DNA of 64,000 nucleotides from positions 1-64,000 of IMG/VR virus record IMGVR_UViG_3300048819_000142, one strand, 5' to 3'. Source of the DNA: a virus (taxonomy: Duplodnaviria; Caudoviricetes). The position numbers and the translations under genes are program-made. Under the pieces are notes generated by a model. It saw nothing but the letters and a program-made list of their open reading frames with translations, did not search any database and was not told the origin of the DNA. This document shows, one piece after another, positions 7,426-41,300 of this stretch. Every line of letters begins with the position of its first letter. Position 1 is the stretch's first letter.

Positions 7426-8127
7426 TTAACCGATCTGCTTGATGAAGTTGCGCGCGATGAAGCCTGCGTGCTTGCCATCGTTCTTCAGCCCGCGGTAGTA
7501 CCTAAAGAGGTAGGTCGGATCCTGCTTGGAAGAGTAGATGGATGCATAGTCACCAGCGTTGTCGACCAGTGCAGTGAACAGCGCGTCTTCCGTAACCTCT
7601 TCACCAATCTTAAAGTTCTTGGTGAGCAGGTCCGCGATATCAGCCTGCTGCTGCGGCACCTTACCCCACTTGTTGAGCGTCGCGCTCAACAGCACGTACT
7701 TGCGACCGGCTGCGGCTTTACCTGGCCGTTGATTCTTCTTCACTTTCGTCACGTTCGTTCCTTTCAGCTCATTGAGCTCGTCAGTCAGCTTCTGGATCAT
7801 CGCCATCAAGGCATCACTGTTCATCGTCTTCTTCTCCTCTTCTTTCGGCCGTTCAACTACCAATTCCAGTTCACCAGGCTCCTCGACCAAGCCCGTGAGG
7901 TCCAACTTCTCCTCTTCGGTCCGCGTGTCCTCCTGATTCAGCTGCTCCAGGTCATCAATGCCACAGCAGCGTTCGGGAACTTCCTCGCCATTCTCCTCGG
8001 CGAAGTTCTGCTGCTCGAGCATCTGCAGTGCGTTGATACCACAGTTGGTGCATTCGGGATACATCGTTGTTTCTTCTCCTTTCACTTCAACGTTCTCAGC
8101 TACTGTGTTGTTGGTTACTGCGTTCAT
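7426..8127 (-). CDS. Cys-motif, acidic region, coiled coil and putative winged-helix protein (paralog 3)
   Basis: KYVLL....W..VPQQ...TED.LF...SKQDPTYLFRYYRG. Confidence 0.75.
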   Translation of the reverse strand: MNAVTNNTVAENVEVKGEETTMYPECTNCGINALQMLEQQNFAEENGEEVPERCCGIDDLEQLNQEDTRTEEEKLDLTGLVEEPGELELVVERPKEEEKKTMNSDALMAMIQKLTDELNELKGTNVTKVKKNQRPGKAAAGRKYVLLSATLNKWGKVPQQQADIADLLTKNFKIGEEVTEDALFTALVDNAGDYASIYSSKQDPTYLFRYYRGLKNDGKHAGFIARNFIKQIG

Positions 8128-8231
8128 GTTGCTACGTCCTCGGCTCAAGATCTATGCAGGAGGGAGCCATTCTCCTGTGGTCACGGCAGACCGTAGCACC
8201 TTGCATCTGCCGTGCCATCACTACCTAGGAC

Positions 8232-8489
8232 CTATACAGCTTCATTGCAATTGATGCAGATGCCGTTGATGCTGGCAACATGCAAGCACTTACCGTACAC
8301 CATGTCGTTGAGCTGTACCTTGCTCTTCGCATGTGGCGTACGACTTATGCTGGGTGACAGAGCGTGGACTCTCTCATCGAGTCTGAACAGCACCAGATCC
8401 ATTCTCGTATCTCCTTCATACTCTGCAAGTCTGCTCAGTACGATAGTCTGCGCATCGTACAGCGCCTTGATTTCGTCCCACTTCTTCAT
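8232..8489 (-). CDS. Hypothetical protein with C-terminal C-x-H...CxxC
   Basis: GAGGAG RBS; start at 8489 or 8495. Confidence 0.65.
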   Translation of the reverse strand: MKKWDEIKALYDAQTIVLSRLAEYEGDTRMDLVLFRLDERVHALSPSISRTPHAKSKVQLNDMVYGKCLHVASINGICINCNEAV

Positions 8490-8587
8490 GTTCATTCTCC
8501 TCGGCTCAAGATCTAGCAGGAGGGAGCCATTCTCCTGTAGTACCGCATAGTGTAGCGCATCCATGCGGTACTGTCACTAGCTAGGAC

Positions 8588-8860
8588 CTAGCGAAGCACA
8601 AGTACTACCTTACCGTCTTCCTCCTTAATATACGGCTTGAACGCGATCCACACCTTAGCGTCGCGCAGCCACCTTACCACAGCGTCAGTGTCCTCAACAG
8701 GGACAGCAACGCTCAGCGGTTCGTCTCCCATAAAGACCGAATCCACTACCTCCAGTTCAGACTCTTGAGCGTAGAAGCTCCTGAGCGCTGCAACCTGCAC
8801 GTCCTGCGTACTGCTGCAGTCCATGTAGTCTTCGTTGTATAGCATATCGTTGTTCATCAT
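8588..8860 (-). CDS. Hypothetical protein
   Basis: AGGAGAACTAACATG start. Confidence 0.7.
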   Translation of the reverse strand: MMNNDMLYNEDYMDCSSTQDVQVAALRSFYAQESELEVVDSVFMGDEPLSVAVPVEDTDAVVRWLRDAKVWIAFKPYIKEEDGKVVLVLR

Positions 8861-8938
8861 GTTAGTTCTCCTTCACGTTGACTGCAAAGCCGGAATGTCC
8901 CGCCGGCTCGGTGAATACGCTTGGTCACTAGCTAGGAC

Positions 8939-9172
8939 CTACAGTACGTTACAACCGATCAACTTCGCGATGTTCTTCGTGTGTTGTAGCTCTTCTTTAT
9001 GGCGCCTCACCGTCTCGTCCGTTACTTCCGGATACATACCTTTCGCTTTTCTCCTCAGTATTTGATCATACTTGAGTTGCCGATCCCATATGGCGTCTCT
9101 CAGCGCATGCAGGTCGTAGTCGTCGACCGTGATGGTCATGTTACCTGTGACTTCGTTTGTTGATACCGTCAT
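8939..9172 (-). CDS. Hypothetical protein, first gene of the leftward operon
   Basis: AGGAGAATAACATG start. Confidence 0.7.
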   Translation of the reverse strand: MTVSTNEVTGNMTITVDDYDLHALRDAIWDRQLKYDQILRRKAKGMYPEVTDETVRRHKEELQHTKNIAKLIGCNVL

Positions 9173-9499
9173 GTTATTCTCCTGTTACTTCTTCGATTTT
9201 ACTTCTGAGTTTACTCGACGCATACGACCAGGAATATCTACTTCAAAAACCGTACACATACAGGGGGTCTGTTGAGTAAGATTTTCCTATATAGCCGCAC
9301 GCGCCCTCCGGCCCCCGCCGAGGCAAATTTTGAAAGCTCGCTGACTTGTGAGATTGAAGGAAAACTTCGAGACGATCTAAGACTTATACGAAAACTCAAC
9401 CCAACCCCCCTGTACCCGAGGGGAAAGAGGTAAGGTTTCATCTGCTGCAGGATTGTTGGTGGGATTTAGTGCTGAAGGAGTAAAACGAGGTACTGGGAG

Positions 9500-9900
9500 G
9501 GTACTGAAAATGTTGGCTCCCTAAGTAGGCAGTATTGGTGAACGTAGAGCCAAACACCCTTTGTTTTCAACAACTTATAGGTAGCGGTAAAATTTGCATC
9601 GGCACTACCATAGAAAACTGATTATTGGCACTTTTTACGACTTCGTATAGCTAACTTATTGATTCCAAAGAACCATCGGCTCTACCCTATATTGGGAATA
9701 TTGTTTCCCTATTGTCTTACGTAGAGACCAGTAGTTCTTTGTTTTCAATAGGTTATTGGGAGTGTTTATTGGATGTTGGCTCTACCAACATTTTCTCGTA
9801 GGATTTCACGTAAAAAAAATGTCCCTTTGTTTGTATAGCCAATATGTAGGCCGTAACTGTTGGCTAAGTTGTTAAAGGGAAAGGACAACAGGCACTACAA
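9500..9900. promoter_or_regulatory. AT-rich origin- or packaging-like region with about 9 TYGGCWCTAC-like iterons and IHF-like sites
   Basis: Motif copies at 9513, 9544(rc), 9599, 9625, 9676, 9721(rc), 9776, 9833(rc), 9890; perfect WATCAANNNNTTR (rc) at 9652-9664 and near-matches at 9565-9577 and 9743-9755. Confidence 0.6.
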
Positions 9901-21029: not shown

Positions 21030-22712
21030 ATGATCGAACTTGGACCAGTCACGCAAGCACAACTAAGTGATCCGATCTTCTCGGATATCATGTGGAAATT
21101 GACGCCAGCCTCAGTGGCCGTGCGCCTTTCCGGTGGTTCCTACAAGACCTGGCCATACATCCAGTTGCTGTCTCGCAAGCTCGTCGATGTTGCTATGGGC
21201 AGGTGCAGGCGACTGATTGTTGTAATGCCTCCACGACACGGGAAATCGGAACTTGTTTCAAAGTGGTTCCCCGTCTGGTACATGGAGAACTTCCAGAGGA
21301 ATCGAATCATCCTCTGCTCGTACGAAGCGGAGTTTGCTGCCAAGTGGGGAGGCAAGGCTCGAGACATTATTGCCGACAACCAGGAAAACCTGACCGTTCG
21401 GTTCCACACGAAGAATCCTGCCATGCACAACTGGGAGACTTCGGAAGGTGGCGCGATGATGTGCGCCGGCGTCGGTGGTCCCATCACTGGTAAGGGTGCT
21501 AACGTCTTCATCATTGACGATTATGTTAAAAACAGTGAGGAAGCAAACTCCCTCACCATGCGTGAAAAGACGTGGGACTGGTATACGTCGACTGCTCGAT
21601 CGCGTATGGAGCCTGACGGAGCTATCGTCGTCATGGCAACTCGGTGGCATACCGACGACCTCATTGGAAAGATTCTCCAGAAAGAGCACGAGAACATCCA
21701 GCGTGTTGCTGAGGGTGACAAGAAAATTGAAATCGAGGGATGGGAAGTGTTCTGCTTCCCGGCCGAGGCTGAGCCCGACGCTGAGAGGCACTACCGCCAA
21801 TACGAAGTCAAGGTAAACGACTTGCGACTCGGCGCCGTTTCCACGTCTCCCGCAAAGAAGAAAAGTATCAGTGAAGTCCTTGGTGAGGAAACTCCGCAAT
21901 GGAAGGACGTACTTGGACGTTCCATTGGCGATCCTCTCTGTCCTGATCGCTACGACAATCGGGATCTTGCGAGGTTCAAGAGCATCAATCTACGTGACTG
22001 GTACGCACTGTTTCAACAGCGGCCTGGCGACGAGGCTGAGGACGGCAATACGTACCACCAGTTCGACGAGCGCTCGCATTGTAGGAGAATGTCGCGTGAT
22101 GAGCGCATGCAGCTCTTTGTTTCGATGGATTTCAACGTTGATCCGATGTGCACGGTCATCGGTCAATACGACCGTGGACTCGGTATCAGGCTGATGGAGC
22201 GTTGCGAAATCCTCGAGGAGATCATTCTTCCGAAGAGCAATACCCCAAACATGATGCCCAAGCTTATACAAGAGTTGCAGAAGTATAAGCGAGGGTACAC
22301 GCTTGAAATCGAGGTGTACGGTGATGCAGCAGGAACACAGCGTTCTTCGCAGACTCAGAAAACGAACTGGCAACTTGTTGCGGAGTATTTTTCGCTCGAT
22401 CCTTATATCCATTATCGGTTCATTCGCAGAAAATCGAATCCGATGATAGTAGATCGCGTCAATGCGGTCAACACCATGCTCCGTGCAGCGGACGGTACTG
22501 TTCGCATGTACGTCGACGACACCAGGTGTCCTGAGCTTGTTAAAGATTTCAAGAAGGTTTCTTGGCAAGTTAACTCTGATGGGACTAGCACGGGCCTGCT
22601 TGACAAAAGGGATCCGAAACGCACTCACATCAGTGACGCGCTGGGCTACATGGTAGAGTACAACTTCGCCCTGAGGGCAAAAGCCGGTGGAAGAAAAGGA
22701 CTCATGCAATGA
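21030..22712 (+). CDS. terL: Terminase large subunit (Terminase_6-type ATPase and RNase H-like nuclease)
   Basis: Walker A MPPRHGKS, Walker B IIDD, ATRWH..DL, SMDFNVDPM, HISDALGY. Confidence 0.95.
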   Translation: MIELGPVTQAQLSDPIFSDIMWKLTPASVAVRLSGGSYKTWPYIQLLSRKLVDVAMGRCRRLIVVMPPRHGKSELVSKWFPVWYMENFQRNRIILCSYEAEFAAKWGGKARDIIADNQENLTVRFHTKNPAMHNWETSEGGAMMCAGVGGPITGKGANVFIIDDYVKNSEEANSLTMREKTWDWYTSTARSRMEPDGAIVVMATRWHTDDLIGKILQKEHENIQRVAEGDKKIEIEGWEVFCFPAEAEPDAERHYRQYEVKVNDLRLGAVSTSPAKKKSISEVLGEETPQWKDVLGRSIGDPLCPDRYDNRDLARFKSINLRDWYALFQQRPGDEAEDGNTYHQFDERSHCRRMSRDERMQLFVSMDFNVDPMCTVIGQYDRGLGIRLMERCEILEEIILPKSNTPNMMPKLIQELQKYKRGYTLEIEVYGDAAGTQRSSQTQKTNWQLVAEYFSLDPYIHYRFIRRKSNPMIVDRVNAVNTMLRAADGTVRMYVDDTRCPELVKDFKKVSWQVNSDGTSTGLLDKRDPKRTHISDALGYMVEYNFALRAKAGGRKGLMQ

Positions 22713-23239
22713 GCAACAATGACGCCGTACTTCTTCGCAGACAAATTGCCGACGAGTTGAAAGATATTGACTCCCGGCGAGTGGTTCTTGTTGATCGACT
22801 CAGGACGATTGACGCAGCAGCTGACGCCGCTGCGAAAGAAGCAGACGCTGCCAAGGGTCTAACTAACGCCTGCAAGGGCCACTGGCGCGAAGATGACACC
22901 TGCTCATACTGCGGGTCCATGGGCGTTGCTCGAGCAATCGAGCTGCTCAAGACACAGGGCACTGCTTATAGTGGTGCCGACTGGAAGTACGGCTGGCCTC
23001 ACAAGTTCTACATTGGTCAGAAGAAGTTCTACCACAACCACCTTGAGGACGCGACTTCTGAGCAACTCGAGGAATATTCGAAGCTAAGCGACGAGCTCCT
23101 TGGTGTTTCCTGGGACAGCCACGAAGGGGAGATCAGGTATCGCGCAGTTCCCGGAATTCAAAAGTGGGGCGTCGTCGGTTCTGAAGAAGAAAAAGGCGCC
23201 GGAGTAATGAAGCAGGACGCCGAGAAAAAAGGAGAATAA
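22709..23239 (+). CDS. Hypothetical protein (CSYCGS motif)
   Basis: ATGA overlap with terL. Confidence 0.7.
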   Translation: MSNNDAVLLRRQIADELKDIDSRRVVLVDRLRTIDAAADAAAKEADAAKGLTNACKGHWREDDTCSYCGSMGVARAIELLKTQGTAYSGADWKYGWPHKFYIGQKKFYHNHLEDATSEQLEEYSKLSDELLGVSWDSHEGEIRYRAVPGIQKWGVVGSEEEKGAGVMKQDAEKKGE

Positions 23240-23240
23240 T

Positions 23241-23534
23241 ATGCAATGGGTAGGATTGGGCAAGGTAACAGTGGCGACGGCTGGTACACCGGTCAAGCTT
23301 TCTAACGTCACGTTGAAAGTTCATAGCGTCATCGTGACGTATGATCCTACGGATACGGGATCAATCTACGTGAAAGATTCCGGAGGAAACGTTGTCGCCG
23401 TTATGGGGGCCAACTCGACATCCCCAGTGATACTGGACAGTGGCTCTGGTCAGAATGCTATCGACTTATCGAAGTATTCAGTCGATACGTCCGTCAATGG
23501 AAAAGGACCCTACGTAGGCTATAGCCTCGGATAA
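23241..23534 (+). CDS. Small beta-strand virion protein (decoration-like)
   Basis: GKVTVATAGTPV composition, RBS. Confidence 0.65.
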   Translation: MQWVGLGKVTVATAGTPVKLSNVTLKVHSVIVTYDPTDTGSIYVKDSGGNVVAVMGANSTSPVILDSGSGQNAIDLSKYSVDTSVNGKGPYVGYSLG

Positions 23535-23537
23535 TTT

Positions 23538-23930
23538 ATGCCAGAGGAGAAGAACATGCTGTTCTACGTTGAGGCAATTCCCCACAAGAATCAGCGGTAC
23601 GAGACTTGTGGCGATTGGCAGTTTCTCCCGAACGGTCTGCATGTCAGTGTTTCTGACACTGGTGATCGTATGAGCAATATGCTCGTTGCTTTGCACGAGA
23701 TTGTTGAGGCGATCCTTTGCGAGGCTAATGGAGTCAGCGAGAAAGACGTGGATCGGTTTGACATGGAGTACGAGGCCAAGCGCACAGACTCCAGCCTTGA
23801 TGAGCCTGGTGATGAGCCCAGTTCTCCGTATCACAAGCAGCACAAGGTCGCGGACCTGGTAGAGAGAATGGTTGCTCTCCAGGCTGGAGTCAATTGGGAA
23901 GAACACAACGCGAGGGTTGAGGCATTATAG
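23538..23930 (+). CDS. HExxE metal-binding / metallopeptidase-like protein
   Basis: RYETCGDW...VALHEIVE...EPGD....PYHKQH..A..VE. Confidence 0.65.
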   Translation: MPEEKNMLFYVEAIPHKNQRYETCGDWQFLPNGLHVSVSDTGDRMSNMLVALHEIVEAILCEANGVSEKDVDRFDMEYEAKRTDSSLDEPGDEPSSPYHKQHKVADLVERMVALQAGVNWEEHNARVEAL

Positions 23931-25241
23931 ATGCGATTCCTAATGGTTTCGAATGTCGGCGAGGGTGCACACCTTCTTCACCAGATTCAGCTGGAGGGGA
24001 ATGAGGTGGAGCTGTACATCAAGGACAAGTCCTACTACAACGTGTGGGACGGCATGCTACCCAAGGTTGACAAGATTGAACCAAAGGAAGGAACGGTCGT
24101 CATCTTCGACTTTTCTGGCATGGGCGACATTGCCGATAAGCTTCGCGCTGACGGTTTTGCTACAGTTGCTGGATCAAAGTTTGCTGATAAGTTGGAACAG
24201 GATCGAATGTTCGGTCTGAACATGATGGAGAAGTGCGGAATTAAGGTACCCTTCACCATGGCGTTCGATGACTTTAGTGTGGATGAGGTGAAGAAATTTC
24301 TCGAGGAGCATGGCGGAGATGACAAGAGGTTCGTATTCAAGCCTTCAGGTAAAGATCTCCCATGTTCGCTGACGTACTGCTCGCATGACGATGCTGACAT
24401 GATTAAGTGGGTGGAGTACATTGACAGGTACTTCGCTAAGCGAATCGACTCGTTTGTTCTGCAGGAGTTTAAGAAAGGTGTTTGCGTCTCGACGGAGATG
24501 TGGTGTGACGGAAAGAAGTTCCTGCGCCCTGCTAATCACACTGTTGAGGTAAAGAAAGTTCTGAACTGTGAGTTGGGCCAGGCAACTGGTTGCGCCGGTA
24601 ATATCGTTTGGGCTGAGCACGATGATAACTGCAGAATCGTTCGTGAAGGAATCCTGCTCGCTGAGAAGCTGGTAGTTGAAGCAGGGCACGTTGGTCCGAT
24701 GGACCTGAATGCGGTTGTCAATGACGAGGGTGTGTGGGGACTGGAGTGGACTCCGCGATTCGGGTATGACGCCATGCCCACCCTTATTAAGATGATCAAG
24801 GGTGGTGTCGGTAAGTTCATGTCCGACGTAGCTCACGGTCAAGGTAGCAGGGTGGATATGATTGAGAAGATGGCAGCCGCAGTGAGGGTTACCATTCCGC
24901 CATACCCTCTTGAGGTCCACGACATCGAGGACGCCGAAAAAATCTGCCCGAACATTGGGATACCTATCAGGGGAGTTCCCGAGGGCAAGGAAGACAAGTT
25001 CTACTGGTTCGAGGTAATGGCTGAGGGAGACGACCTCGTCCATTCAATCGGCACTGGTGTCATTGCCGACGTCGTTGGTTTCGGCGACGATTGCTACGAA
25101 GCTTTTGAAGAACCCTACGAGATCCTCGGTGAGTTGATATTACCGAATAAGCAATATCGAACCGACCTGGATGAGTGCCTGAGCGAGATGTATCAGCAAG
25201 TGTGCGACCAGGAAGGAAATAAGATTGGGGAAGGTGAGTAG
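23931..25241 (+). CDS. PurD (GAR synthetase)-like ATP-grasp amidoligase
   Basis: LEQDR..G..M..CGI, FVFKP, LQEF..G..VS, LG.ATG.AG and LEWTPRFG parallel PurD motifs; lacks PurD GSGGREH. Confidence 0.85.
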   Translation: MRFLMVSNVGEGAHLLHQIQLEGNEVELYIKDKSYYNVWDGMLPKVDKIEPKEGTVVIFDFSGMGDIADKLRADGFATVAGSKFADKLEQDRMFGLNMMEKCGIKVPFTMAFDDFSVDEVKKFLEEHGGDDKRFVFKPSGKDLPCSLTYCSHDDADMIKWVEYIDRYFAKRIDSFVLQEFKKGVCVSTEMWCDGKKFLRPANHTVEVKKVLNCELGQATGCAGNIVWAEHDDNCRIVREGILLAEKLVVEAGHVGPMDLNAVVNDEGVWGLEWTPRFGYDAMPTLIKMIKGGVGKFMSDVAHGQGSRVDMIEKMAAAVRVTIPPYPLEVHDIEDAEKICPNIGIPIRGVPEGKEDKFYWFEVMAEGDDLVHSIGTGVIADVVGFGDDCYEAFEEPYEILGELILPNKQYRTDLDECLSEMYQQVCDQEGNKIGEGE

Positions 25242-26905
25242 TGGCTACCACACCAGTTAATCCATCATTGACGTTTGTCGGGGCTCCTGGTGTTTATGGC
25301 CAGGGGAACAATGCCATTCTTCCAGAAGCTGCTTTCGGCCCAGGCCGTGTCCCCGTAAACAAGCTCAACCAGCAACACCCTGAATACGCCTCCCGATTTG
25401 AAGCCTGGCTCGATCTTTCCCTCATGTATGAGGGCGGAGCTTACCTCAAGGCAAAGTGCGAGCGTGTCCTTAAGAAAAGGCCGAGGGAAGATGAGGAAGT
25501 GTATGCAGCCCGTATGGACCGCTTCACTTACCAAAACATTCTCGGTACCGGTCTGGGTTGGTATGGCGCTGCAATGTTTGACACGCCACCCGAAATTTTC
25601 TTCAACGGCGGTGCTGGTAAGGACTTCTACTCGAAGTTCCTCGACAACTGCGACGGTATCGGAACAACATACCTTGATTTCTGGAAGAGGACCTTCCAGT
25701 TCATGCTCACGTATGGCGCGGCGTGGGTTCTCACTGATCTCAGAGCATTGGGAGAGGATGAGGCTCCTCCTGTTACCTTGGAGGAAGAGCGCAGCCGTGG
25801 CCTGCTTGATCCGCACCTCGCGGCATACACGCCGATGAATGTCATCAACTGGCGGTGCGATGAGCGCGGTGAACTTAAGTGGGCGGTAATTAAGACCGAG
25901 GTTGAGGATCAGGAATTTCTTGGCCGCAGGGAAATCGTTACAACGTGGTACTACTACGATCGCACCCAGTACCGCGTGTATGAGGATCGTCGTTCTCCCG
26001 AAGAGCAAGTTCGCATCGGTACAGAAGACTCTGGCCGTACCGCCGTGCTGCTACGCGAAGGTCCACATGCTTTAGCAGCAAAAAACAGGGTGCCTGTTCG
26101 AAGGGTTACACTCAGCGAAGGATTGTGGCTTGCAAACCGCGCCTACCTTTTGCTGATCGACCACCTTAATCAGGACAACACACTTGCCTGGTCCCTGTTC
26201 ATGTCGAACCTCGCTATTCCGATCATCATCGGCGATGTTGACGCGTCAAATATGACGCAAAGCGAAAACGGTTATTTGCAGTTTCCCCAGGGTACCACGT
26301 ACCAGTGGTCGGAACCTGCTGGTAACAGCTTCATTCATTCGTCGAAACGTGTTGAATCACTCAGGGAAGAGTGCTTCCGCTCGATGAACCTTCAGGCTCA
26401 GGGCCGCAGCATGCGGGCTACGCCGGCCATGCAATCTGGAAAAAGTAAGCAGCTTGAGATGTCTCCTGCAAAGCAAATTCTTGCAGGCATGGGAGACGAC
26501 CTTCGTAGGCATATGCAGGACGTGCTTGTTGACGTTCGCGACGCCAAGAACGAGGATGACGTTCACCCAGATGTTCGCGGCTTCACTTTCCAGGAGGACA
26601 TGACGACGGAAGAAGTATTCGCCGTCAACTCCGTTCTCAGCATTAAGATTCCTTCAGAGAAATTTGAGAAGTATCTCTATAAGAAGGTGGCCAAGGCGTG
26701 GATGGTCGACGCCAATCGTGAGGAACTCGATTCTGTATACAAGGAGATCGACGCTGGTCCTACGTTGCAGGAGCGTGAAGAAGACGAGTTCAAGAAGCGA
26801 GTTGAGATGGCGAAGCAGGGTATGAAGGGAGCGCTCGGAGCAAAAGGCCCTGCGCAGCCCCCTGGCCGAGGCGGCGCGGGTCCGTCGCCAAACACACCGA
26901 AGTAA
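25241..26905 (+). CDS. Portal protein (DUF4055-like)
   Basis: HPEY...W...YEGG...R..E..E.Y..R..R N-terminus, Y.P..VINW; size and position. Confidence 0.85.
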   Translation: MATTPVNPSLTFVGAPGVYGQGNNAILPEAAFGPGRVPVNKLNQQHPEYASRFEAWLDLSLMYEGGAYLKAKCERVLKKRPREDEEVYAARMDRFTYQNILGTGLGWYGAAMFDTPPEIFFNGGAGKDFYSKFLDNCDGIGTTYLDFWKRTFQFMLTYGAAWVLTDLRALGEDEAPPVTLEEERSRGLLDPHLAAYTPMNVINWRCDERGELKWAVIKTEVEDQEFLGRREIVTTWYYYDRTQYRVYEDRRSPEEQVRIGTEDSGRTAVLLREGPHALAAKNRVPVRRVTLSEGLWLANRAYLLLIDHLNQDNTLAWSLFMSNLAIPIIIGDVDASNMTQSENGYLQFPQGTTYQWSEPAGNSFIHSSKRVESLREECFRSMNLQAQGRSMRATPAMQSGKSKQLEMSPAKQILAGMGDDLRRHMQDVLVDVRDAKNEDDVHPDVRGFTFQEDMTTEEVFAVNSVLSIKIPSEKFEKYLYKKVAKAWMVDANREELDSVYKEIDAGPTLQEREEDEFKKRVEMAKQGMKGALGAKGPAQPPGRGGAGPSPNTPK

Positions 26906-27213: not shown

Positions 27214-27975
27214 GTGCTTAATAACCGTATGAACATGGGACCGCTTCGTGCGCCCGCTGGAGTTGCTGGCGGCGCCGGAGGAGGTGATCCAAACGCAGCT
27301 TTGACGATGGAAGCGGTCCTCGCAGAAGTGAACAAGGGTCTGGACGCCAAAATCGCCGGTCAGCTCCAGAAATACAAGGAGAGTACCGACGCGCAGTTTG
27401 CGCCCATCACGGCAAGTCTTGCGGGAATCACGGAGGCGCTCGGGAAGCTCACACAGAATCCGAATCCGAATCCGAATCCGGCAGGGGGCGGCAACAAGAT
27501 GTCACCCGAAGAGAACGTGCTCCTCAAAAATCTTCAGGACATCACGAAGACTCAACAGCAGGCAATCGAGAAGCTGACACGTGAGAAGCAGGAATCTGAC
27601 CAGAAGGCAGAGCGTTCGGACCGCCACTCGACCATCAAGGGCGCGCTGAACAACATGCACTTCATCAGTGACGTCGCGGCTCAGACGGCCTTTACGATCG
27701 TGGAACCGCACATCAAGCGTCAGGACGACGGCGGCTTGATCGGCGGTGTTCAGGGCGGCGATCTTTATCCGGTGGATGCTTTCGTCAAGGATTACTTGAT
27801 GAAGGAGCATTCGTATCTGCTTCGCGCTTCGGGAAGTTCGGGTTCGGGCGCGCCGGCAAATCCTGGTGTCCGCATGGGCGCCAAGGCCGACCTGAGCGAC
27901 ATCAAGGTCGGTATGAAGCCCGAAACTCGCGAAAGCATCGTGGCGTCGATCGGCGCTGCACTGGCGAGCGTTTAA
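27214..27975 (+). CDS. Capsid scaffolding protein
   Basis: Coiled coil, NP repeat, Gly/Ser C-terminal motif; directly upstream of the capsid gene. Confidence 0.75.
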   Translation: MLNNRMNMGPLRAPAGVAGGAGGGDPNAALTMEAVLAEVNKGLDAKIAGQLQKYKESTDAQFAPITASLAGITEALGKLTQNPNPNPNPAGGGNKMSPEENVLLKNLQDITKTQQQAIEKLTREKQESDQKAERSDRHSTIKGALNNMHFISDVAAQTAFTIVEPHIKRQDDGGLIGGVQGGDLYPVDAFVKDYLMKEHSYLLRASGSSGSGAPANPGVRMGAKADLSDIKVGMKPETRESIVASIGAALASV

Positions 27976-28024: not shown

Positions 28025-28924
28025 ATGCCAGCTATTACATCGGCGAATGTCGCCGACGCTATTGTCAAACTCGTTGCGGCGGACGCCTTGCCGGCGTTGG
28101 TCGGTAACCTCGTCATGGGTAACCTGGTCAACAGGTCGTACGAGGCAGACCTGGCGAATCAGGGAGATACGGTCAATATCCCGATTCCGCCGACCATGGC
28201 CGCCAACAACATTGCGGAGGGTGGGTCGGTCCAGACGCAAAACCCCAGTCTCGGCAATGCACAGGTGGTGATCAACACGCACGCGGAATCGAGTTTCCAG
28301 ATTCCCGATGTGACGCGTGTTCTCGCTCACCCGGATCTCCTGAACATGTACATGATGCCCGCGATTATCTCGCTGGCGGAGCGTATTGAGGACGATCTCA
28401 CACAGCTTTACCTTAACCTGACCGCCAACTCGGCTGTCGGGACGGGTAATACCACGATCACGGAATCGGTCGTCGACAGCGCGGAAACTGCCTTGTTCAA
28501 CTCCAAGGTTCCGGACTCACTGCCCAAGTTCCTGGTAGTCAGCGGTTCGACTTATTCGGACATGCGGCAGATTCAGCGCTTCTCGGAAGACAAGGTGTCG
28601 CCCGAGTTCGCAAACGTGATTTCCAGCGGCCAGGTCGGTCGTCTGAAGAATTTCTACGTGATGCGCAGCCAGTACATCACTAAGGTCAGCACCACGACCT
28701 ACAACCTGGCCTTCGCACGCGACGCTTTCGCGCTGGTCATGCGCATGCTGCCCAAGCCGCTCCCGAACACCGGCGCGGTCGCGGAATATGCATCGCTTGG
28801 CAACTTCGGTATGCGTGTCGTCCTTAGCTACGCGCCGAACACGCTCGCTCAGCAGTTCACGGTCGACGTCCTCTACGGCGTCGCGGTCCTTCGGAACCTT
28901 TTCGGAGTGCAGGTACTGAGCTAA
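28025..28924 (+). CDS. Major capsid protein (P22 coat-like, HK97 fold)
   Basis: LVNRSYEADL...GDTVNIPIP, FARDAFALVMR.LP, DVLYG motifs. Confidence 0.9.
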   Translation: MPAITSANVADAIVKLVAADALPALVGNLVMGNLVNRSYEADLANQGDTVNIPIPPTMAANNIAEGGSVQTQNPSLGNAQVVINTHAESSFQIPDVTRVLAHPDLLNMYMMPAIISLAERIEDDLTQLYLNLTANSAVGTGNTTITESVVDSAETALFNSKVPDSLPKFLVVSGSTYSDMRQIQRFSEDKVSPEFANVISSGQVGRLKNFYVMRSQYITKVSTTTYNLAFARDAFALVMRMLPKPLPNTGAVAEYASLGNFGMRVVLSYAPNTLAQQFTVDVLYGVAVLRNLFGVQVLS

Positions 28925-29794: not shown

Positions 29795-29817
29795 GGCGAG
29801 CAGTCTCACTGAAGTCG

Positions 29818-29857
29818 CGGGGCTCGGCGGAAGTTCCGTCGGGCCCCGTTTTGTTTT
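29818..29857 (+). terminator. Rho-independent terminator
   Basis: CGGGGCTCGGCGG/CCGTCGGGCCCCG stem followed by TTTTGTTTT. Confidence 0.8.
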
Positions 29858-29859
29858 GA

Positions 29860-29938
29860 AGCGGAGTGGACTGGAGTCTGGTTCCAGCTCGGTCTCATAA
29901 GCCGACTCACGCGGGTTCAAATCCCGCCTCCGCAACCA
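29860..29938 (+). tRNA. tRNA-Met (CAT), initiator-like
   Basis: Acceptor GCGGAG/CTCCGC with 1:72 mismatch, anticodon arm TCGGT-CTCATAA-GCCGA, T-arm GCGGG-TTCAAAT-CCCGC, encoded CCA. Confidence 0.9.
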
Positions 29939-35366: not shown

Positions 35367-38300
35367 TTGGCCCAGTTGTTTGACGACGAGGTACTAAGCG
35401 TAGTCCTGAAGTTCTCCAATCCCAATAAACGGGACATGGAGGACGCGGACAAGATTGCTACGAAGCTATCCATGGCACTTGACGGGGTCGTGCGCAAATC
35501 TGTATTTGCTGGCCGAGCTGTTGCAGACGTGCTGGAGGGTATCAAGCGGCTCGAGCCGACCTTGAAGTCAATGGAGAAGCGCGCTGGCACGATTGGTGCT
35601 AGCGCGGGCGCACTTAAGACCGCGCAGCAAATCCTTGCACGCTACACTCCTGCGCGGCTTGAGAAGCTGGCTGAAGTCCAAGCGTCGAAAATTGCTGAAA
35701 CTAGTGGCACGGCTTCCCTTCGTCGTCAACTTGAGAAGCATGGGGAGCTAATTAAGCGACTCGTTGCCACCCGGGAGGGCAGGTATAACAGGGCAACAGG
35801 CAATAGTCCAACAGGTCGCGGCCTGTTTATCGACACCGAATCTACAGGGTTGAATGCACTTAAGCATCAGATTACAGAATTAACTGCTACGCTGTTTACG
35901 TTCAATAAAGCTACGGGGGAAATCCTTAATCAGCAAGAGAGGACGTACCACGGTTTTCAGCAACTCGCATTCCAGTCACGCCACCAGTACATGCCTCAGG
36001 GCGTGACTCCCGCGCAGCTACAGAGCCAGGCCATATCTACTACCATGCTGCGTCGTCTGATGCAGCAGGCTGATTTTGTCGTAGCTCACAATGCGCCACA
36101 TGACAAGAAGTTTGTTGAACGACTTGTTCCTCAAGCTGCAGGTATGATGTGGCTCGACTCGATGCGAGGTATCCCTTGGCGCACGCTCGGTCATAGCTCG
36201 CGGGCCCAGCAGGATCTTCTCAGAGCGCACGGAATCAACCCAGGGCAAGCACACAGGGCAACGGACGATGTTAGGGCTGGCGTTAAATTGCTCAGTTCTC
36301 GTTCGCCTATCGGTGGTCCCACGTACATGAGTATGCTCTTGGGCAACCAGGGACCGCTCAACCAGTCTCAGCAATTGCTTGCGCAGATCAAGCACATGGC
36401 TGATGAAATTCGTAGTGACCTGTCGTCTCGTCTTGGTGAGGGCGGCGGTCGATACATGTCATCGACAGCTCGCTACAAATCCCTGGGAACCACAGCCTCT
36501 AGAGCTGCTGACGACGTGGCAGAGTTCTACACTCAGCATGTCATTGCTGCAATTGAGGGTGGCATTGACGCCAGGTCTCGGAGGCCTGCTCGAAGCACTG
36601 ATTACGGAATCAAGTTCGGATCTGGGCAAGCACCAGAGACAACCCCTGGCCTGTTGGGCCATTCAGCTATTAGCATTGACCGACGGCTTGGCGTGATTGA
36701 TCAGTTCCTACGGAACATGACTATCATGTCTGGCCCTGCAAGTTCTTCCCAGTTCATGGACCATTATGTTTTTCAGAGCAGGTCCCAGGAACGAATTCAG
36801 CAAGGTCGCGGTCGCGGTCGTCAGATCAAGTCAGATATTCGTTCTGGCGATGAAGTATCCCTTGCTACAATGCAAGGACTCAATACACGCTACGAGAACG
36901 AGCGACAGGGGATTCAGAGAGAAGATCCGATGAATGCCCTGTTGAATGAGCTTGATCGTCGTCAATCGGACAATCGTACACAGCTTGCTCAGCGTATGCT
37001 ATCTCAGCCGTGGGCTCAGCCACCTAAAAAGAGTGTATATATTGCTGGCCCAATGCGTGGTATACCAAACCTTAACTTTCCGGAGTTTGATAGGACAGAA
37101 GCTTTATGGCGTGGCAGAGGTTTCGGTGTAGTTAACCCCGCACAGTTGGATAGGGAGCATGGGTACATTCCTGTAGGCGGTCAGACTCATTTTGCGAATT
37201 TATCTATAGAGGAGGCAATGAGTAGGGATATCCCTGCTGTTACTGGGACGAGTGGTATTGCTTTGATGAGGGGATGGGAAAAGAGTCAAGGGGCCAAAAT
37301 GGAGCTCCAGCACGCAATCTCCCAAAGAAAAGAGATATACGACGCTGAATCAGGCAATCGGCTTCGGCTTAGGGATTTGCGAGCACTTGGCATGGAGAAT
37401 CTCTCCATGTCGATTCAGTCACGAATTCCTGTATCTTCAGTTAAAAATTTTTCTCCTACTATATTTCGCGATCGGGAAATTGCTACATTTATCGATCAAA
37501 ATAGTAAGAGTGCTTCTCCATCCTTGATAAGGCATGCTGCTCAGATGGCGTCACACGTCGGCCCCAACGACCCACGGTTCATGCAGCTTGCTTCCATTAT
37601 GTTTGAGGGGCAGCAAGTAGGTCGTCAGCTGGCGTCGTCTCGCGCTGTCCAGGCGCAAAAAGAAGCGATGGACCGTATAGCAGGTAACGTTGGTTCGAAG
37701 CCTCGGTCAGGTTTTCGCAACGTTATTGGTGAGGCGCTGCGCGGTTTAAGCGACGCTGGTCTTGCCACTGGAATGACTGCTGTTTCGCCATTCCTTTCTT
37801 CTGGCGGTATCGGCGGTGGGTCCTTTGGCACGTTTCTTAACTACTTTAGGAATAGGCGACGATCTGCTTCTTCAGGCGGAAGGACGACATCGTATGACGA
37901 GCGCGCTGAGGGCTACCTTCCAGAACCCACGACGCTACGTGGCTCAATGCGCAGGGATGCCTTGGAGCAGAAACTTGGCAAACTTCGAGATACTGTCGAA
38001 TCAACTACCCGTGGCTTCCAAACGTTCAGGGACGTCACAGCGCAGGCTAAGGCGAATGACGCTGCTCGTCGGTATAGTTCTCGCGACTATGCTATTACCT
38101 CAGGACTGAATTCAGCTCGTGGTTCGTTCGATGCGCAGCTTGCCAGGCTCGAGGGACGCAGGCTCCAGTCTCGAACTTCCACAAGTCGCCGACTTGGTGG
38201 TATTCAGGAGTCATTTGAAAGTCGGTCTTCAGCGCTTGGCTTCTCTGAGTTGGACGCCGAGCAGCAATACGAGTCTGCACTCGATTCACAGCGCAGAAAA

Positions 38301-41300
38301 ACAGCTCGCTTACGCAAATCGAAGGCGTATTCGAAGGGAAAACTCTCAGACGAAGATATTCAGGCAGGTCTTCAGGGTCCTGTGCGAAGCGCACAGATGC
38401 GCCTCATCAAAGCTGAATACCAGGCACGTGCATCCCAGCTTACTGATCCAGGGGAGATTGACTCGCTGCGTCGTCAAACTGCTGGAAGGTATGCTGTAGC
38501 CCGATATGGTCCTGGCAGCGGGCCTGAACTTGAGCAACTCAGGTCAGACTATGCCGAGCGAGTCCATGGCTTGCTTGGTGGTAGGACGCTTGCCCAGAGG
38601 GCGGAAGGTCGTGCAAGACAGGTTGGAGAGGATCAGGTTGCTCGCGAGCGAGAACTTGATCAGGCTGTTGATCAAATTCGTGCTCGTAGGGATTCAGCTG
38701 AAGCCAGTGCAAGTCAGAAGCGCTCTGATAATGCGTCAAGGTTTGGCGCTGAGGGCGTCAAGCTAGAGAGCGAAGTTGAGAAACGTCGGCTCGCAAGTCT
38801 CAAGAAGATTACTGATGCTGAAAAGAAGGCGCATGAGGCCCGTGTTCGATATCTCAAGACTGAGGACGCTGCAGGTGGAGGTGGCGGCGGAGGTGGTAGC
38901 ACGCATAGTGGGGGCACTCACGGAGGTGGAAGCGGCCGTTCAAATTTTGAAAGCCGCGATGCACTTGGGTTCGGTCTCGGCCTATCAACGCTCGCTTCCT
39001 ACGGTGTCGCGATTTGGAATGGTGTAAAGGAATCGGCTATCTATGCCGCCAACGTTGACGCGCTGAAGTTCTCTACTCAGGAAATTGCGAAGGTAAACGC
39101 CCTTGATGTTGGAGCTGTTATGGACAGCGTGAACAACATTAAGAAGCTGAACATGACCACGGAATCAGCGAATCAGGTTGTTCAGAGAATGATCTTCGCT
39201 CAACTTGACGTTGGCAAGGCTGGTCAGGTCGCGCAAGTCGCGCAAAATGTTTCCATCCTCTCTGGCCAAACTCCTGCTGAGGCTGTTGAACGTATCATTA
39301 CTGGTGTTTCAACTGGTTTGACTGTTACTCTGCACCGCATGGGACTTCCAGTTAGCATGTTGCAGGTTAACAGGCAGCTGTCGGCTGATCGCAAGGCTGA
39401 AGGCAAGAGTGGTCCAGCTAGCGAGGTTGAGAAGCGGCAAGCTTTGCTTAATGCCGTCATTCGTGAGGGAGCTAAGGCCAATGGCCTGTATGAGAAATCC
39501 CTGCTCACCGCTGGTGGACAGCTTAAGCTGTTTGAGCAGAACATGCAGGAATTACAGTATAGCGTTGGCAAGGAGTTTCTGCCTGAGTTCGGTCGGTTCA
39601 TCTCGCTCATGTCGTCGGGTGCCAAGTTCGTTGATGCCAACTCTGCATCTGTCGCAAAATTTGCTAGCGTGCTTGCCTCGTTGACGGCTGCGGCAAGTTC
39701 TGTTGGGACGCTCGCGTTGTTCCGATATCTCCTCGCATCCCCTGTCGTACCATGGTGGGCGAAGTTGATAGGTGCAGGTGTTGGAGTTGCGACATATTCT
39801 GCCCTAAACCAAGATGATGCTGTTGCGATGTCGAAGACTGCTAATGAGCAACTCGACGCACTCAAGGGAAAGATTGACTCGCTTAAGAAGGAGCGATCTT
39901 CACTGCAAGGGAGTAAAAATGATTCTCCCGAGTGGAAGAACGCAATGGACATCAACACGGAAGCTACTCGTTCTGCTTCTGAAGCTCAGGTGTCTATCAA
40001 CCAGGAACTGACAAAGAACCTGGCTGATGAGTACAATAAGCGAATTGCAGACATTGATAACTACATTGCAGCAATGGAAGGCAAGCAGGGGACGTGGGCC
40101 CAGATCATGGCAACGTTCAGGACAAGCCCAGAAAATTCTGCTGTGGGGGCTGTTGCACGCGATATTCCGATTCTTGGAAACACAGGCCCTGAGGACATCG
40201 AGGAGGCACGTCAACAGCGAGCAGGACTTGCTGGGCAGTTTGCTTCAGGCACGCGCGGTATTACTGCCGAGGACATCAAACGAGAAGCAGTTCGTCAAAG
40301 ACTTGAGAGGCTTCGCGTAGCCGACTTGTCCCCAAGTATTATCAATAAGGAGAAGCTCGCTGTTGCGAGTATGATCTCTGAGATGACTGATGCTGAAGGT
40401 CAGCTTAATAAGCTCGATGAAAAGTACAGCGAAGAAGGAACTGTTGGACTCAGGGCAAGGAAAGCCATGGGTTCTCCACGCCAGAAAGTTCTCCTTGATT
40501 ATGACGAACAGGTCGCCAAGGTAAATAAGCTCAGTGCATCGCTCACTGATTTGAAAAAGAATGCTGCAGACGGAGATGTCGGTGCGCAGACACAGTTAAA
40601 TGACGTCGCCAAGCAACTCGGCGGCGGCGACTTCATTCTTGGACACGAGAAAATCAATGACTTCCTTAGTCGCAAGGATGATGTTGTTGGTGCTGCTGCA
40701 GAGGACCGAGACATACAGCTTGGCAAGATCAATCGACAGAACAAGGCGCAAATTGCCCAGGTTCGTGAACAGATGCAGGTTGAACAGGTTCAATCTGCAG
40801 TGGTTCAGGGGAATTATTCTTCTGAGCGTGAAGCAATTCTGAAAACGTTCGACATTAAGCAGCAGACCGCTAAGAAGACCTTGGGCTTGCTCGAGGACGT
40901 AGATGCATATAATCGCCAAATTGCTCAGAATGAGACTGATCGCGATGTTGGGTTGCTACGTCTCGAAATTGAAAAGAAGCGGGCTCAACAGGATCGCGAT
41001 CAGAGGGTACTATCACATGGTGCAGATCTTAAAGCTCAAGACATACTTGATAGTCCCGGTGACGCCGAACAGGTCATTCGCTACGCCTACAGAACAAAGC
41101 TTGATGCGACTGCGTCTATCACTGATGAGAACAAGCGCCTCAATGATCAACTCGATTTGCTATTCGAGCTTGATGAAGCGTTACGAAAACTTTCCAAGGA
41201 CAAGAAAACGCTTGCTGCCGAAGGACGTATTTCCGAATTCCAGGACAACCAGCAGCTCGCGATGGAGATTGATCGGACGATCAGTGCTCAGGCTGGCAAA

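Follow-up and report, generated by a model that had tools for sequence, protein, structure and literature searches.

The stretch of DNA considered here (the window) comprises 64,000 nucleotides (nt), positions 1 to 64,000 of the IMG/VR virus record IMGVR_UViG_3300048819_000142, an uncultured phage genome of 116,843 bp that CheckV rates as complete. Within its head operon lie two abutting genes, one encoding a small protein with an HExxE motif and the other an ATP-grasp ligase that automatic annotation would call PurD. The evidence from sequences and models supports the view that the ligase is PurD-shaped but not a purine enzyme, and likewise that the two proteins are functionally linked. Together they may form a conserved, late-expressed two-enzyme module whose favoured target is a peptide or a protein, a reading for which we see the case as evenly balanced. 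The two genes are the following:

23538..23930, + strand: HExxE protein, predicted minimal zincin-like metallohydrolase, 130 amino acids (aa) (AlphaFold2 (AF2) model, fold searches)
23931..25241, + strand: PurD-fold ATP-grasp ligase, assessed as not a glycinamide ribonucleotide (GAR) synthetase, 436 aa (profiles, AF2 model, alignment, tree)

Sequence searches with the ligase match only PurD, and they do so weakly: GARS_A at 5.7e-5 (below the Pfam cut-off), TIGR00877 at 8.7e-16, and the PDB entry 2ip4 at 1.7e-9. The Pfam search returned GARS_A and GARS_C only, with no match to a RimK-type ATP-grasp model, while relatives of the ligase match GARS_A and ATP-grasp_3. The TIGR00877 score is 57.7 bits against an equivalog cut-off of 288 bits, and relatives score 60-98 bits. 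The fold, in contrast, is that of PurD (GAR synthetase, EC 6.3.4.13; TIGR00877; GARS_N/GARS_A/GARS_C; PDB 2yw2, 3lp8, 2ip4, 1gso, 2qk4) over its full length. The AF2 model, built with 24 relatives in the alignment (predicted local distance difference test score, pLDDT, 90.8), matches PurD crystal structures in Foldseek over all four domains, N-B-A-C, with template modelling (TM) scores of 0.69-0.78 at 15-23% identity; the top 15 PDB matches are all PurD, with TM up to 0.78 (2yw2, 3lp8).

The differences from PurD are concentrated in its motifs, as seen in an alignment of 69 distinct phage relatives, 8 cellular relatives, and 6 canonical PurDs. GGREHA, the GLAAGK B-loop, DHKR, GPNTGGMG, E-x-N-x-R-x-GDPE, and GGRV are intact in the six canonical enzymes but replaced in all 69 phage and 8 cellular sequences. 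In the window ligase, the N-terminal loop reads SNVGEGAH in place of GSGGREH(A) (the family pattern is xGEGAx or xGDGxx), the B-loop reads GKDLPC, E-V-K-K stands for D-H-K-R, GQATGCAG for GPNTGGMG, and GTGV for GGRV (R385). Moreover, LEWTPRFGYDA takes the place of E-F-N-x-R-F-G-D-P-E: E-W-T replaces the E-x-N Mg site, and the R[LF]GDPE signature (PS00184) has become RFGYDA, GDPE being present in 0 phage relatives and in 6/6 canonical PurDs. The residues of PurD with a role toward phosphoribosylamine (PRA), glycine, or the acyl phosphate are R13/E14, the B-loop, D217/K219/R220, N229, D295/E297, and R385; in the human numbering, D295 is the general base, E297 binds glycine, and R13/E14 serve PRA or the acyl phosphate (PMC2978367). 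Every one of these positions is replaced throughout the ligase family.

What is retained is the generic ATP-grasp machinery. K137, E206, K208, E272, R276, R410, and D412 are invariant in 69/69 phage sequences, so that the ATP-binding lysines, the acidic metal ligands (among them the Mg ligand E272), and the arginine that stabilizes the acyl phosphate are all in place, together with the C-terminal (Q)YR(T)D motif of PurD. To these the family adds invariant residues of its own: D60, R92, Q178, C221, D258, and N260, with T274 showing one exception, and D86 as a further residue that is new with respect to PurD. The new cysteine, C221, falls in the phosphate loop, within the pattern GxxTGC(A/S)GN. 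The alignment thereby confirmed what the earlier note had read from the window alone, namely that the ATP-grasp motifs are kept while GSGGREH is lost and E-W-T stands for E-F-N. Because of this family membership and the intact catalytic core, the class of chemistry is well grounded: the ligase would be an active ATP-grasp enzyme of PurD ancestry that activates a carboxylate and transfers it to a nucleophile, presumably forming an amide or an ester.

The phylogeny is consistent with a separate family. In a FastTree analysis, a long branch with an SH-like (Shimodaira-Hasegawa-like) support of 100 splits the ligases from canonical PurD, and a clustering with genuine PurDs, which the earlier note had named as evidence against its view, is not what the tree displays. 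The score below the PurD cut-off, the failed PS00184 signature, and the replaced PRA and glycine residues together argue that the ligase is not a GAR synthetase. The same criterion has been applied before, since the "extra" PurDs of haloarchaea (Hlac_1553, rrnAC0307) were judged non-GAR synthetases upon loss of the Asp of GDPE (Brown et al. 2011, PMC3261824). Like the phage family, those proteins have lost the Asp normally conserved in R[LF]GDPE and have a divergent N-terminal loop; however, they are cellular genes, and the comparison concerns the criterion.

The genomic context points in the same direction. The earlier note had seen no other purine genes nearby, and this holds for the entire source genome, since no PurM/PurL-type domain occurs anywhere in its 116,843 bp. 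Among 26 near-complete phage genomes that carry the ligase (the carrier set), the AIRS_C domain of PurM and PurL was found in 0/26. Bacterial metagenome-assembled genomes (MAGs) with a prophage-like copy of the ligase also hold a canonical PurD, scoring 526-570 bits. Such prophage-like copies occur in MAGs of Sulfuriferula and of gammaproteobacteria (L083, L084). In three MAGs of Nitrososphaerota, a ligase relative of ~30% identity is the sole PurD-like gene, and neither PurM nor PurF gave a match over the cut-off in these three MAGs, which may be incomplete; the nearest cellular relative is therefore probably not a purine enzyme either. The archaeal relatives were found in the Nitrososphaerota loci L085-L091 and L096 (e.g., L088:8001-9272).

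As for the HExxE protein, it belongs to a virus-only family, with no match in Pfam, PHROG, or NCBIfam, and a PDB profile search with its alignment returned nothing at E ≤ 10. Its AF2 model (pLDDT 95.6) consists of three strands followed by four helices. The motif HEIVE occupies residues 53-57, so that H53, E54, and E57 lie on the first long helix; the second contributes D75, and the third H102 and E109. Across 55 distinct homologues none of these six residues varies, and they constitute a candidate metal-binding or catalytic set. Foldseek against the PDB lists SPRTN, Ste24, IrrE, BepA, and MATCAP (E ≥ 0.23); VIA-align over 48,161 chains ranks selecase (Z 5.1), CapP (4.9), and PprI (4.8) ahead of YbeY, SPRTN, abylysin, and Wss1; the nearest named clusters in the ESM Atlas are Peptidase_M78 (0.79) and SprT-like (0.77); and BFVD gives IrrE-like and SprT-like phage proteins at E 0.01-0.08, the IrrE-like ones at E 0.01 with probability 0.98-1.0. 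Four independent look-ups thus agree weakly on one fold class, that of the minimal zincin-type metallohydrolases. The protein is probably a zincin-like metallohydrolase, outside any assigned peptidase family, and the hydrolase activity itself would follow from the modelled fold and the conserved residues.

How closely are the two genes tied to each other? The answer depends on the side from which one looks. Starting from the HExxE protein, for which IMG/VR holds at least 313 loci, linkage was counted in the best 80 of these: at least 60 have an adjacent PurD-fold open reading frame (ORF) of ~430 aa, in both gene orders, and in 8 further contigs a ligase lies elsewhere on the contig. Among 60 such adjacent ORFs, 30 match the hidden Markov model of the ligase family at E < 1e-39; 27 distinct ones are very divergent, but hhalign relates them to the family (97.8%, E 9e-13), and they keep E-x-K and D-x-T-x-R while having lost the Cys loop. 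Starting from the ligase, for which 95 IMG/VR loci were retrieved and 80 kept for neighbourhood counts, an HExxE gene detected with jackhmmer adjoins it in 18/80, belonging to the groups named A and D below and to one basal member of group C. Such an asymmetric linkage therefore fits an accessory enzyme that acts on the substrate or the product of the ligase. A predicted complex of the two proteins scored 0.00, which weighs neither way.

Comparison of the flanking genes places the pair on an evolutionary scale. Every locus with upstream DNA and a portal at least 61% identical to that of the window carries both genes (these portals are 61-83% identical), while phages with portals 34-42% identical have neither; accordingly, over long times the cassette behaves as an accessory element, while in the clade it is fixed. 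The neighbourhoods of homologs, which the earlier note had proposed as a check, do contain the pair in other phages, including between TerL and portal in the clade of the window.

Might the two simply be unrelated accessory genes that landed by chance in the same permissive slot? The slot also gathers GIY-YIG and HNH homing endonucleases and variable ORFs, and most ligase loci have no HExxE gene; but adjacency in at least 60/80 HExxE loci, in both orders, next to several ligase clades, and in different genomic contexts renders chance a very improbable explanation. With regard to the endonucleases, in three loci, L003-L005 (e.g., L005:4005-4718), the HExxE gene and the ligase are separated by a GIY-YIG homing endonuclease, and in other lineages HNH endonucleases lie near the ligase (L069/L070; L070:2689-3162).

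The ligase family extends far beyond the window. A profile search over 1.84 billion representatives found 712 proteins (50%-identity clusters) at E ≤ 1e-30 and 4149 at E ≤ 1e-3, where ordinary PurDs may be among the weaker matches. The family is found almost only in uncultured phages: a tblastn search of INPHARED with three family members gave only weak matches of 20-29% identity, no characterised phage being among them, and a literature search found no paper describing the family. Several relatives contain inteins (Hint plus LAGLIDADG) placed exactly at the TG^C221 loop and right after E-x-T274. Inteins and homing endonucleases mark a conserved and constrained gene, of which the TGC loop and the E-x-T motif would therefore be the functional heart. 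The intein-bearing relatives are P0207, P0229, P0175, P0228, and P0236, and a third insertion site lies near position 297. Long relatives from the profile search were considered as fusions and rejected, because their length is due to inteins; a search for fused forms among relatives of at least 764 aa found none.

Clustering of the neighbours in the 80 loci reveals at least four unrelated contexts, all of them late structural operons. Group A, the clade of the window, consists of phages of 117-131 kb with the order TerL, orf97, HExxE, ligase, portal. In group B (43-48 kb), the order is TerL, a 760-aa protein, an orf97-like gene, variable ORFs, ligase, a 410-aa protein, and the major head protein. 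Group C runs from a portal-like gene via a Mu-gpT-like capsid gene and the ligase to tail genes, other genes lying between them. In group D, the virion operon ends with a 1750-aa protein, HExxE, a mini-ORF, and the ligase; from its tape-measure- and endolysin-like PHROG matches, the 1750-aa protein may be of the internal-virion type. The ligase tree nests the clade of the window inside group B, and hhalign found no link from the portal or terminase of this clade to the other lineages' large neighbours. The group B slot between the orf97-like gene and the ligase holds variable large ORFs, such as one of 882 aa with a GDSL/SGNH hydrolase domain and one of 466 aa with a Kelch motif (L014:4768-7416 and other loci). 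Two small ORFs beside the ligase in groups C and D, c48 and c54, were considered as endolysins and dropped because Pfam support is absent.

In lineages other than that of the window, conserved mini-ORFs of 50-95 aa stand directly upstream of the ligase, several with internal repeats (PIPGxV..., ETNQQTK...); they are located at L036:1249-1440, L042:7627-7803, L076:7820-7987, L077:7796-7954, L063:7747-7989, and in relatives of these. Those with repeats are reminiscent of the precursor peptides of ribosomally synthesized and post-translationally modified peptides (RiPPs); no repeat-bearing mini-ORF was found in the window.

In the window, the pair is embedded in the following features:

21030..22712, + strand: TerL, large terminase, first gene of the head operon (Pfam Terminase_6N 7.5e-15; phrog_38 4.9e-54)
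22709..23239, + strand: 176-aa ORF, sharing 4 nt with the end of TerL (no Pfam, PHROG, or NCBIfam match)
23241..23534, + strand: orf97, a small beta-rich protein of 97 aa (tblastn, hhalign)
25241..26905, + strand: portal protein, GTG start (phrog_145 5.9e-33)
27214..27975, + strand: probable head scaffolding protein (phrog_206 1.9e-4, a weak match)
28025..28924, + strand: major head protein (phrog_283 1.1e-39)
29817..29849, + strand: strong intrinsic-terminator-like hairpin that closes the head operon (15-bp stem, 11 GC pairs)
29860-29938, + strand: tRNA-Met (CAT), 11 nt past the head-operon terminator

The genes of the head operon are tightly packed, overlapping or abutting, and the hairpin at 29817-29849 is the sole strong terminator within 10 kb. 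The TAG stop of the HExxE gene (23928-23930) directly abuts the ATG of the ligase at 23931, and a single base is common to the ligase stop and the GTG start of the portal; the HExxE ORF starts at 23538, while its relatives begin at an inner ATG at 23556. The genes for TerL, HExxE, ligase, portal, scaffold, and major head protein form one operon, and the position of the pair is that of a late operon. In this respect the layout is as the earlier note had described it: the coordinates, the HExxE motif, the flanking TerL and portal genes, and the late position all agree. Its statement that the pair is inserted between terminase and portal is correct in position, although it needs an addition, since the two small ORFs at 22709-23239 and 23241-23534 are located there too.

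Regarding these two ORFs, the first includes a Cys-rich stretch (C...CSYC) and seems specific to the source phage, because tblastn gave zero matches across 80 related loci. By contrast, orf97 has orthologues upstream of the ligase throughout the clade (tblastn 45-63% identity, L001 and L003-L007), and it is homologous to proteins of ~105 aa that hold the equivalent position in group B phages of 44-48 kb (hhalign of c43 vs c37: 93%, E 3.2e-7). Elsewhere in the window, a 2666-aa protein (35367-43367, + strand) has a PHROG match to a DNA polymerase exonuclease subunit over residues 109-309, and its residues 540-676 match nucleoside 2-deoxyribosyltransferase and MazG-like PHROGs.

What, then, might this module do? 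With substrates other than glycine and phosphoribosylamine, the ligase would form an acyl phosphate from a carboxylate and then couple this carboxylate to an amine (or a hydroxyl). In the same pathway, the HExxE protein would act either ahead of the ligase, making the substrate ready (a terminal group could be exposed, for instance), or after it, by removing or trimming the product. The preferred target, made or present late in infection, may be a protein of the virion, of its assembly, or of the host, or else a small peptide encoded by the phage. A peptide or protein target is favoured because the ligase occurs in late structural operons in four lineages, has a protease-like partner, and follows conserved small upstream proteins. 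A narrower form of this proposal, which we consider doubtful, is that in phages of several unrelated lineages the ligase, with an optional zincin-like trimmer, creates covalent links or cross-links during head assembly, either on proteins of the virion or its assembly or on a small phage peptide. The capsid cross-links of HK97 are autocatalytic; if the proposal were true, it would represent an enzyme-catalysed maturation or decoration of the capsid, unlike the autocatalytic cross-links known so far.

A number of observations weigh against a peptide or protein target acted on by a fixed pair. On the ligase side, 62 of the 80 loci have no adjacent HExxE gene, and the hydrolase is consequently dispensable for the ligase; of the paired ligase and peptidase that the earlier note had envisaged, the recurrent adjacency stands, whereas the partner proves optional. 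The HExxE protein itself deviates from the HExxH motif of zincins, with Glu57 in place of the second His, and each of its zincin matches is below significance (Z ≤ 5.1; Foldseek E ≥ 0.01), which is the reason why it has been kept out of any peptidase family. As a candidate for the tag, orf97 was considered as a ubiquitin- or Pup-like protein activated at a C-terminal Gly, and this was rejected: only the window and L001 have the terminal Gly, while the other orthologues end in ...GYGVD or ...GIDIE, so that a ubiquitin-like tag is unlikely. Furthermore, the active site of the ligase is strictly conserved across lineages without detectably homologous structural proteins, and this fits a universal small substrate better than virion proteins specific to each lineage. 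The archaeal relatives adjoin a pyridoxal phosphate (PLP) aminotransferase, an M1 aminopeptidase with HEAT repeats, and a peptide-type ATP-binding cassette (ABC) binding protein, a neighbourhood that suggests small-molecule or peptide metabolism. The last of these points is a phosphatase. A C-terminal HAD domain of ~115 residues is fused to the ligase in 11 group-C loci; from sequence, this would imply a phosphorylated substrate or product.

These fusion loci are L053, L056, L058-L062, L064, L068, L071, and L072 (e.g., L062:9234-9575); in L062 the whole fusion spans 7995-9578. The domain is of the capless type, with the motifs DxDGTL ... T ... K ... DD all invariant, and its best PDB profile matches are 1xpj and the phosphatase domain of T4 polynucleotide kinase. 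In L012, the same domain is encoded as a separate gene just downstream of the ligase (L012:9277-9618). In some phages, therefore, phosphate-ester chemistry is tied to the ligase reaction, and the fusion points to a phosphorylated small substrate at least as much as to a protein.

On this basis, the alternative with the best claim, tentative as it is, is that of a small-molecule ligase: a carboxylate, such as an amino acid or sugar acid, would be joined to a phosphorylated amine, or the reverse, giving a non-purine metabolite that the HAD phosphatase or the HExxE metal hydrolase finishes or recycles. The phosphatase with its invariant motifs, the active site that does not vary over very different phages, and the archaeal neighbours all favour it, as does the ancestor, since the substrate of PurD is a small molecule, a phospho-sugar amine. 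A parallel is offered by glucuronamide biosynthesis for the Campylobacter capsule, which combines an ATP-grasp amidoligase with HAD phosphatase steps. Conversely, the residues with which PurD holds the substrate phosphate (the equivalents of R13 and R385) are lost, the HAD domain is absent from the source genome and found in only 4/26 complete carriers, and capless HADs, for example the T4 Pnk phosphatase, often act on macromolecules (protein or nucleic-acid ends). In addition, other biosynthetic genes do not travel with the ligase, whose commonest partner is protease-like.

An improbable option is DNA hypermodification, in which the ligase would acylate an amine-bearing modified base at or before packaging and the HExxE protein would trim the adduct. 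The ligase gene is indeed next to terminase and portal, PurD chemistry takes place on a ribosyl amine, and the source genome has a thymidylate-synthase-like gene ~1.4 kb past the window end (G000:C1:65423-65971, - strand; PF00303, 56.9 bits). However, TGT/DpdA is found in 0/26 carrier genomes, and thymidylate-synthase-like genes in 3/26 only, the three 117-131 kb phages of group A; DNA modification is unlikely because most carriers lack the two known routes leading to amine-bearing bases. The packaged DNA that the earlier note had admitted as a second target is weakened to the same extent.

Alternatively, the ligase could be an exapted, essentially non-catalytic PurD-fold component of assembly or of the virion, with the HExxE protein as its binding or processing partner. 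Its constant position among head genes and the very divergent PurD-fold relatives that adjoin HExxE without the Cys loop are compatible with such a role, to which we give little credence: none of the 69 close and 6 intermediate sequences sampled has lost the catalytic residues, E-x-K and D-x-T-x-R persist in the 27 divergent ones, and the inteins at active-site motifs argue for strong constraint there. Finally, that the gene is a genuine PurD which boosts host purine synthesis, as the JGI label of many homologues (phosphoribosylamine--glycine ligase), the PurD fold, and the listing of purD among phage auxiliary metabolic genes (AMGs) in virome surveys (e.g., PMC11097641) would have it, is barely credible in view of the score, the missing PS00184 (RFGDPE), E-x-N, GGREHA, and B-loop motifs, the canonical PurD already present in bacteria with a prophage copy, the archaeal MAGs in which PurM and PurF gave no match, and the late structural operon of carriers devoid of AIRS_C. 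The ligase is almost certainly not a purine AMG, as the earlier note had maintained.

Set against known systems, the nearest documented case of ligase and protease logic is RimK-RimB (RimABK), in which polyglutamylation of ribosomal protein S6 by an ATP-grasp ligase is coupled to a regulating or reversing protease (PMC11957791). The likeness is one of logic only: RimK belongs to another ATP-grasp family, RimB is retropepsin-like and not a zincin, and the system is cellular, not part of a phage late operon. Among phages, the LUZ24-like group and phiRIO-1 have a gamma-glutamyl amide/amidoligase operon with an amidoligase, a GATase, an ATP-grasp enzyme, and a GGCT (PMC3890496, PMC4819975). It shares with the present module a phage ATP-grasp enzyme and a predicted amide-bond chemistry; nevertheless, it is located in the early region, its ATP-grasp protein of ~290 aa is of another family, the partners are different, and no sequence relation is seen. 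Similarly, the ligase is not of the RimK-like ATP-grasp type of the graspetide RiPP systems. As for the HExxE protein, its best fold likenesses are the minigluzincins (selecase 4qhf, abylysin 4jiu), Peptidase_M78 (PprI 8sln, CapP 7t5t), and SprT/Wss1 (6mdx, 5xbn). It has in common with them the small size, the three-stranded sheet, the helix bearing H-E-x-x-ligand, and candidate ligands on later helices, and it differs by its HExxE motif in place of HExxH, by the weakness of the matches, and by the absence of a match to a curated family. The present analysis newly contributes the linkage statistics in both directions, the fusion to a HAD domain, the positions of the inteins, the test for a purine pathway in the archaeal relatives, and the consistent zincin-like signal of the HExxE protein.

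Among uncultured phages from environmental metagenomes, many have the ligase as a near-core late gene. Since automatic pipelines name it purD, virome studies may be counting a non-purine gene as a purine AMG. What these phages seem to offer instead is the fold of a central-metabolism enzyme rebuilt for a new reaction, placed in operons of virion genes and provided with swappable hydrolase partners, zincin-like or HAD. The identity of the ligase product would reveal either a new modification of virion or host proteins or a new metabolite made by phages, and it would also give a function to the HExxE family, with its at least 313 loci in IMG/VR.

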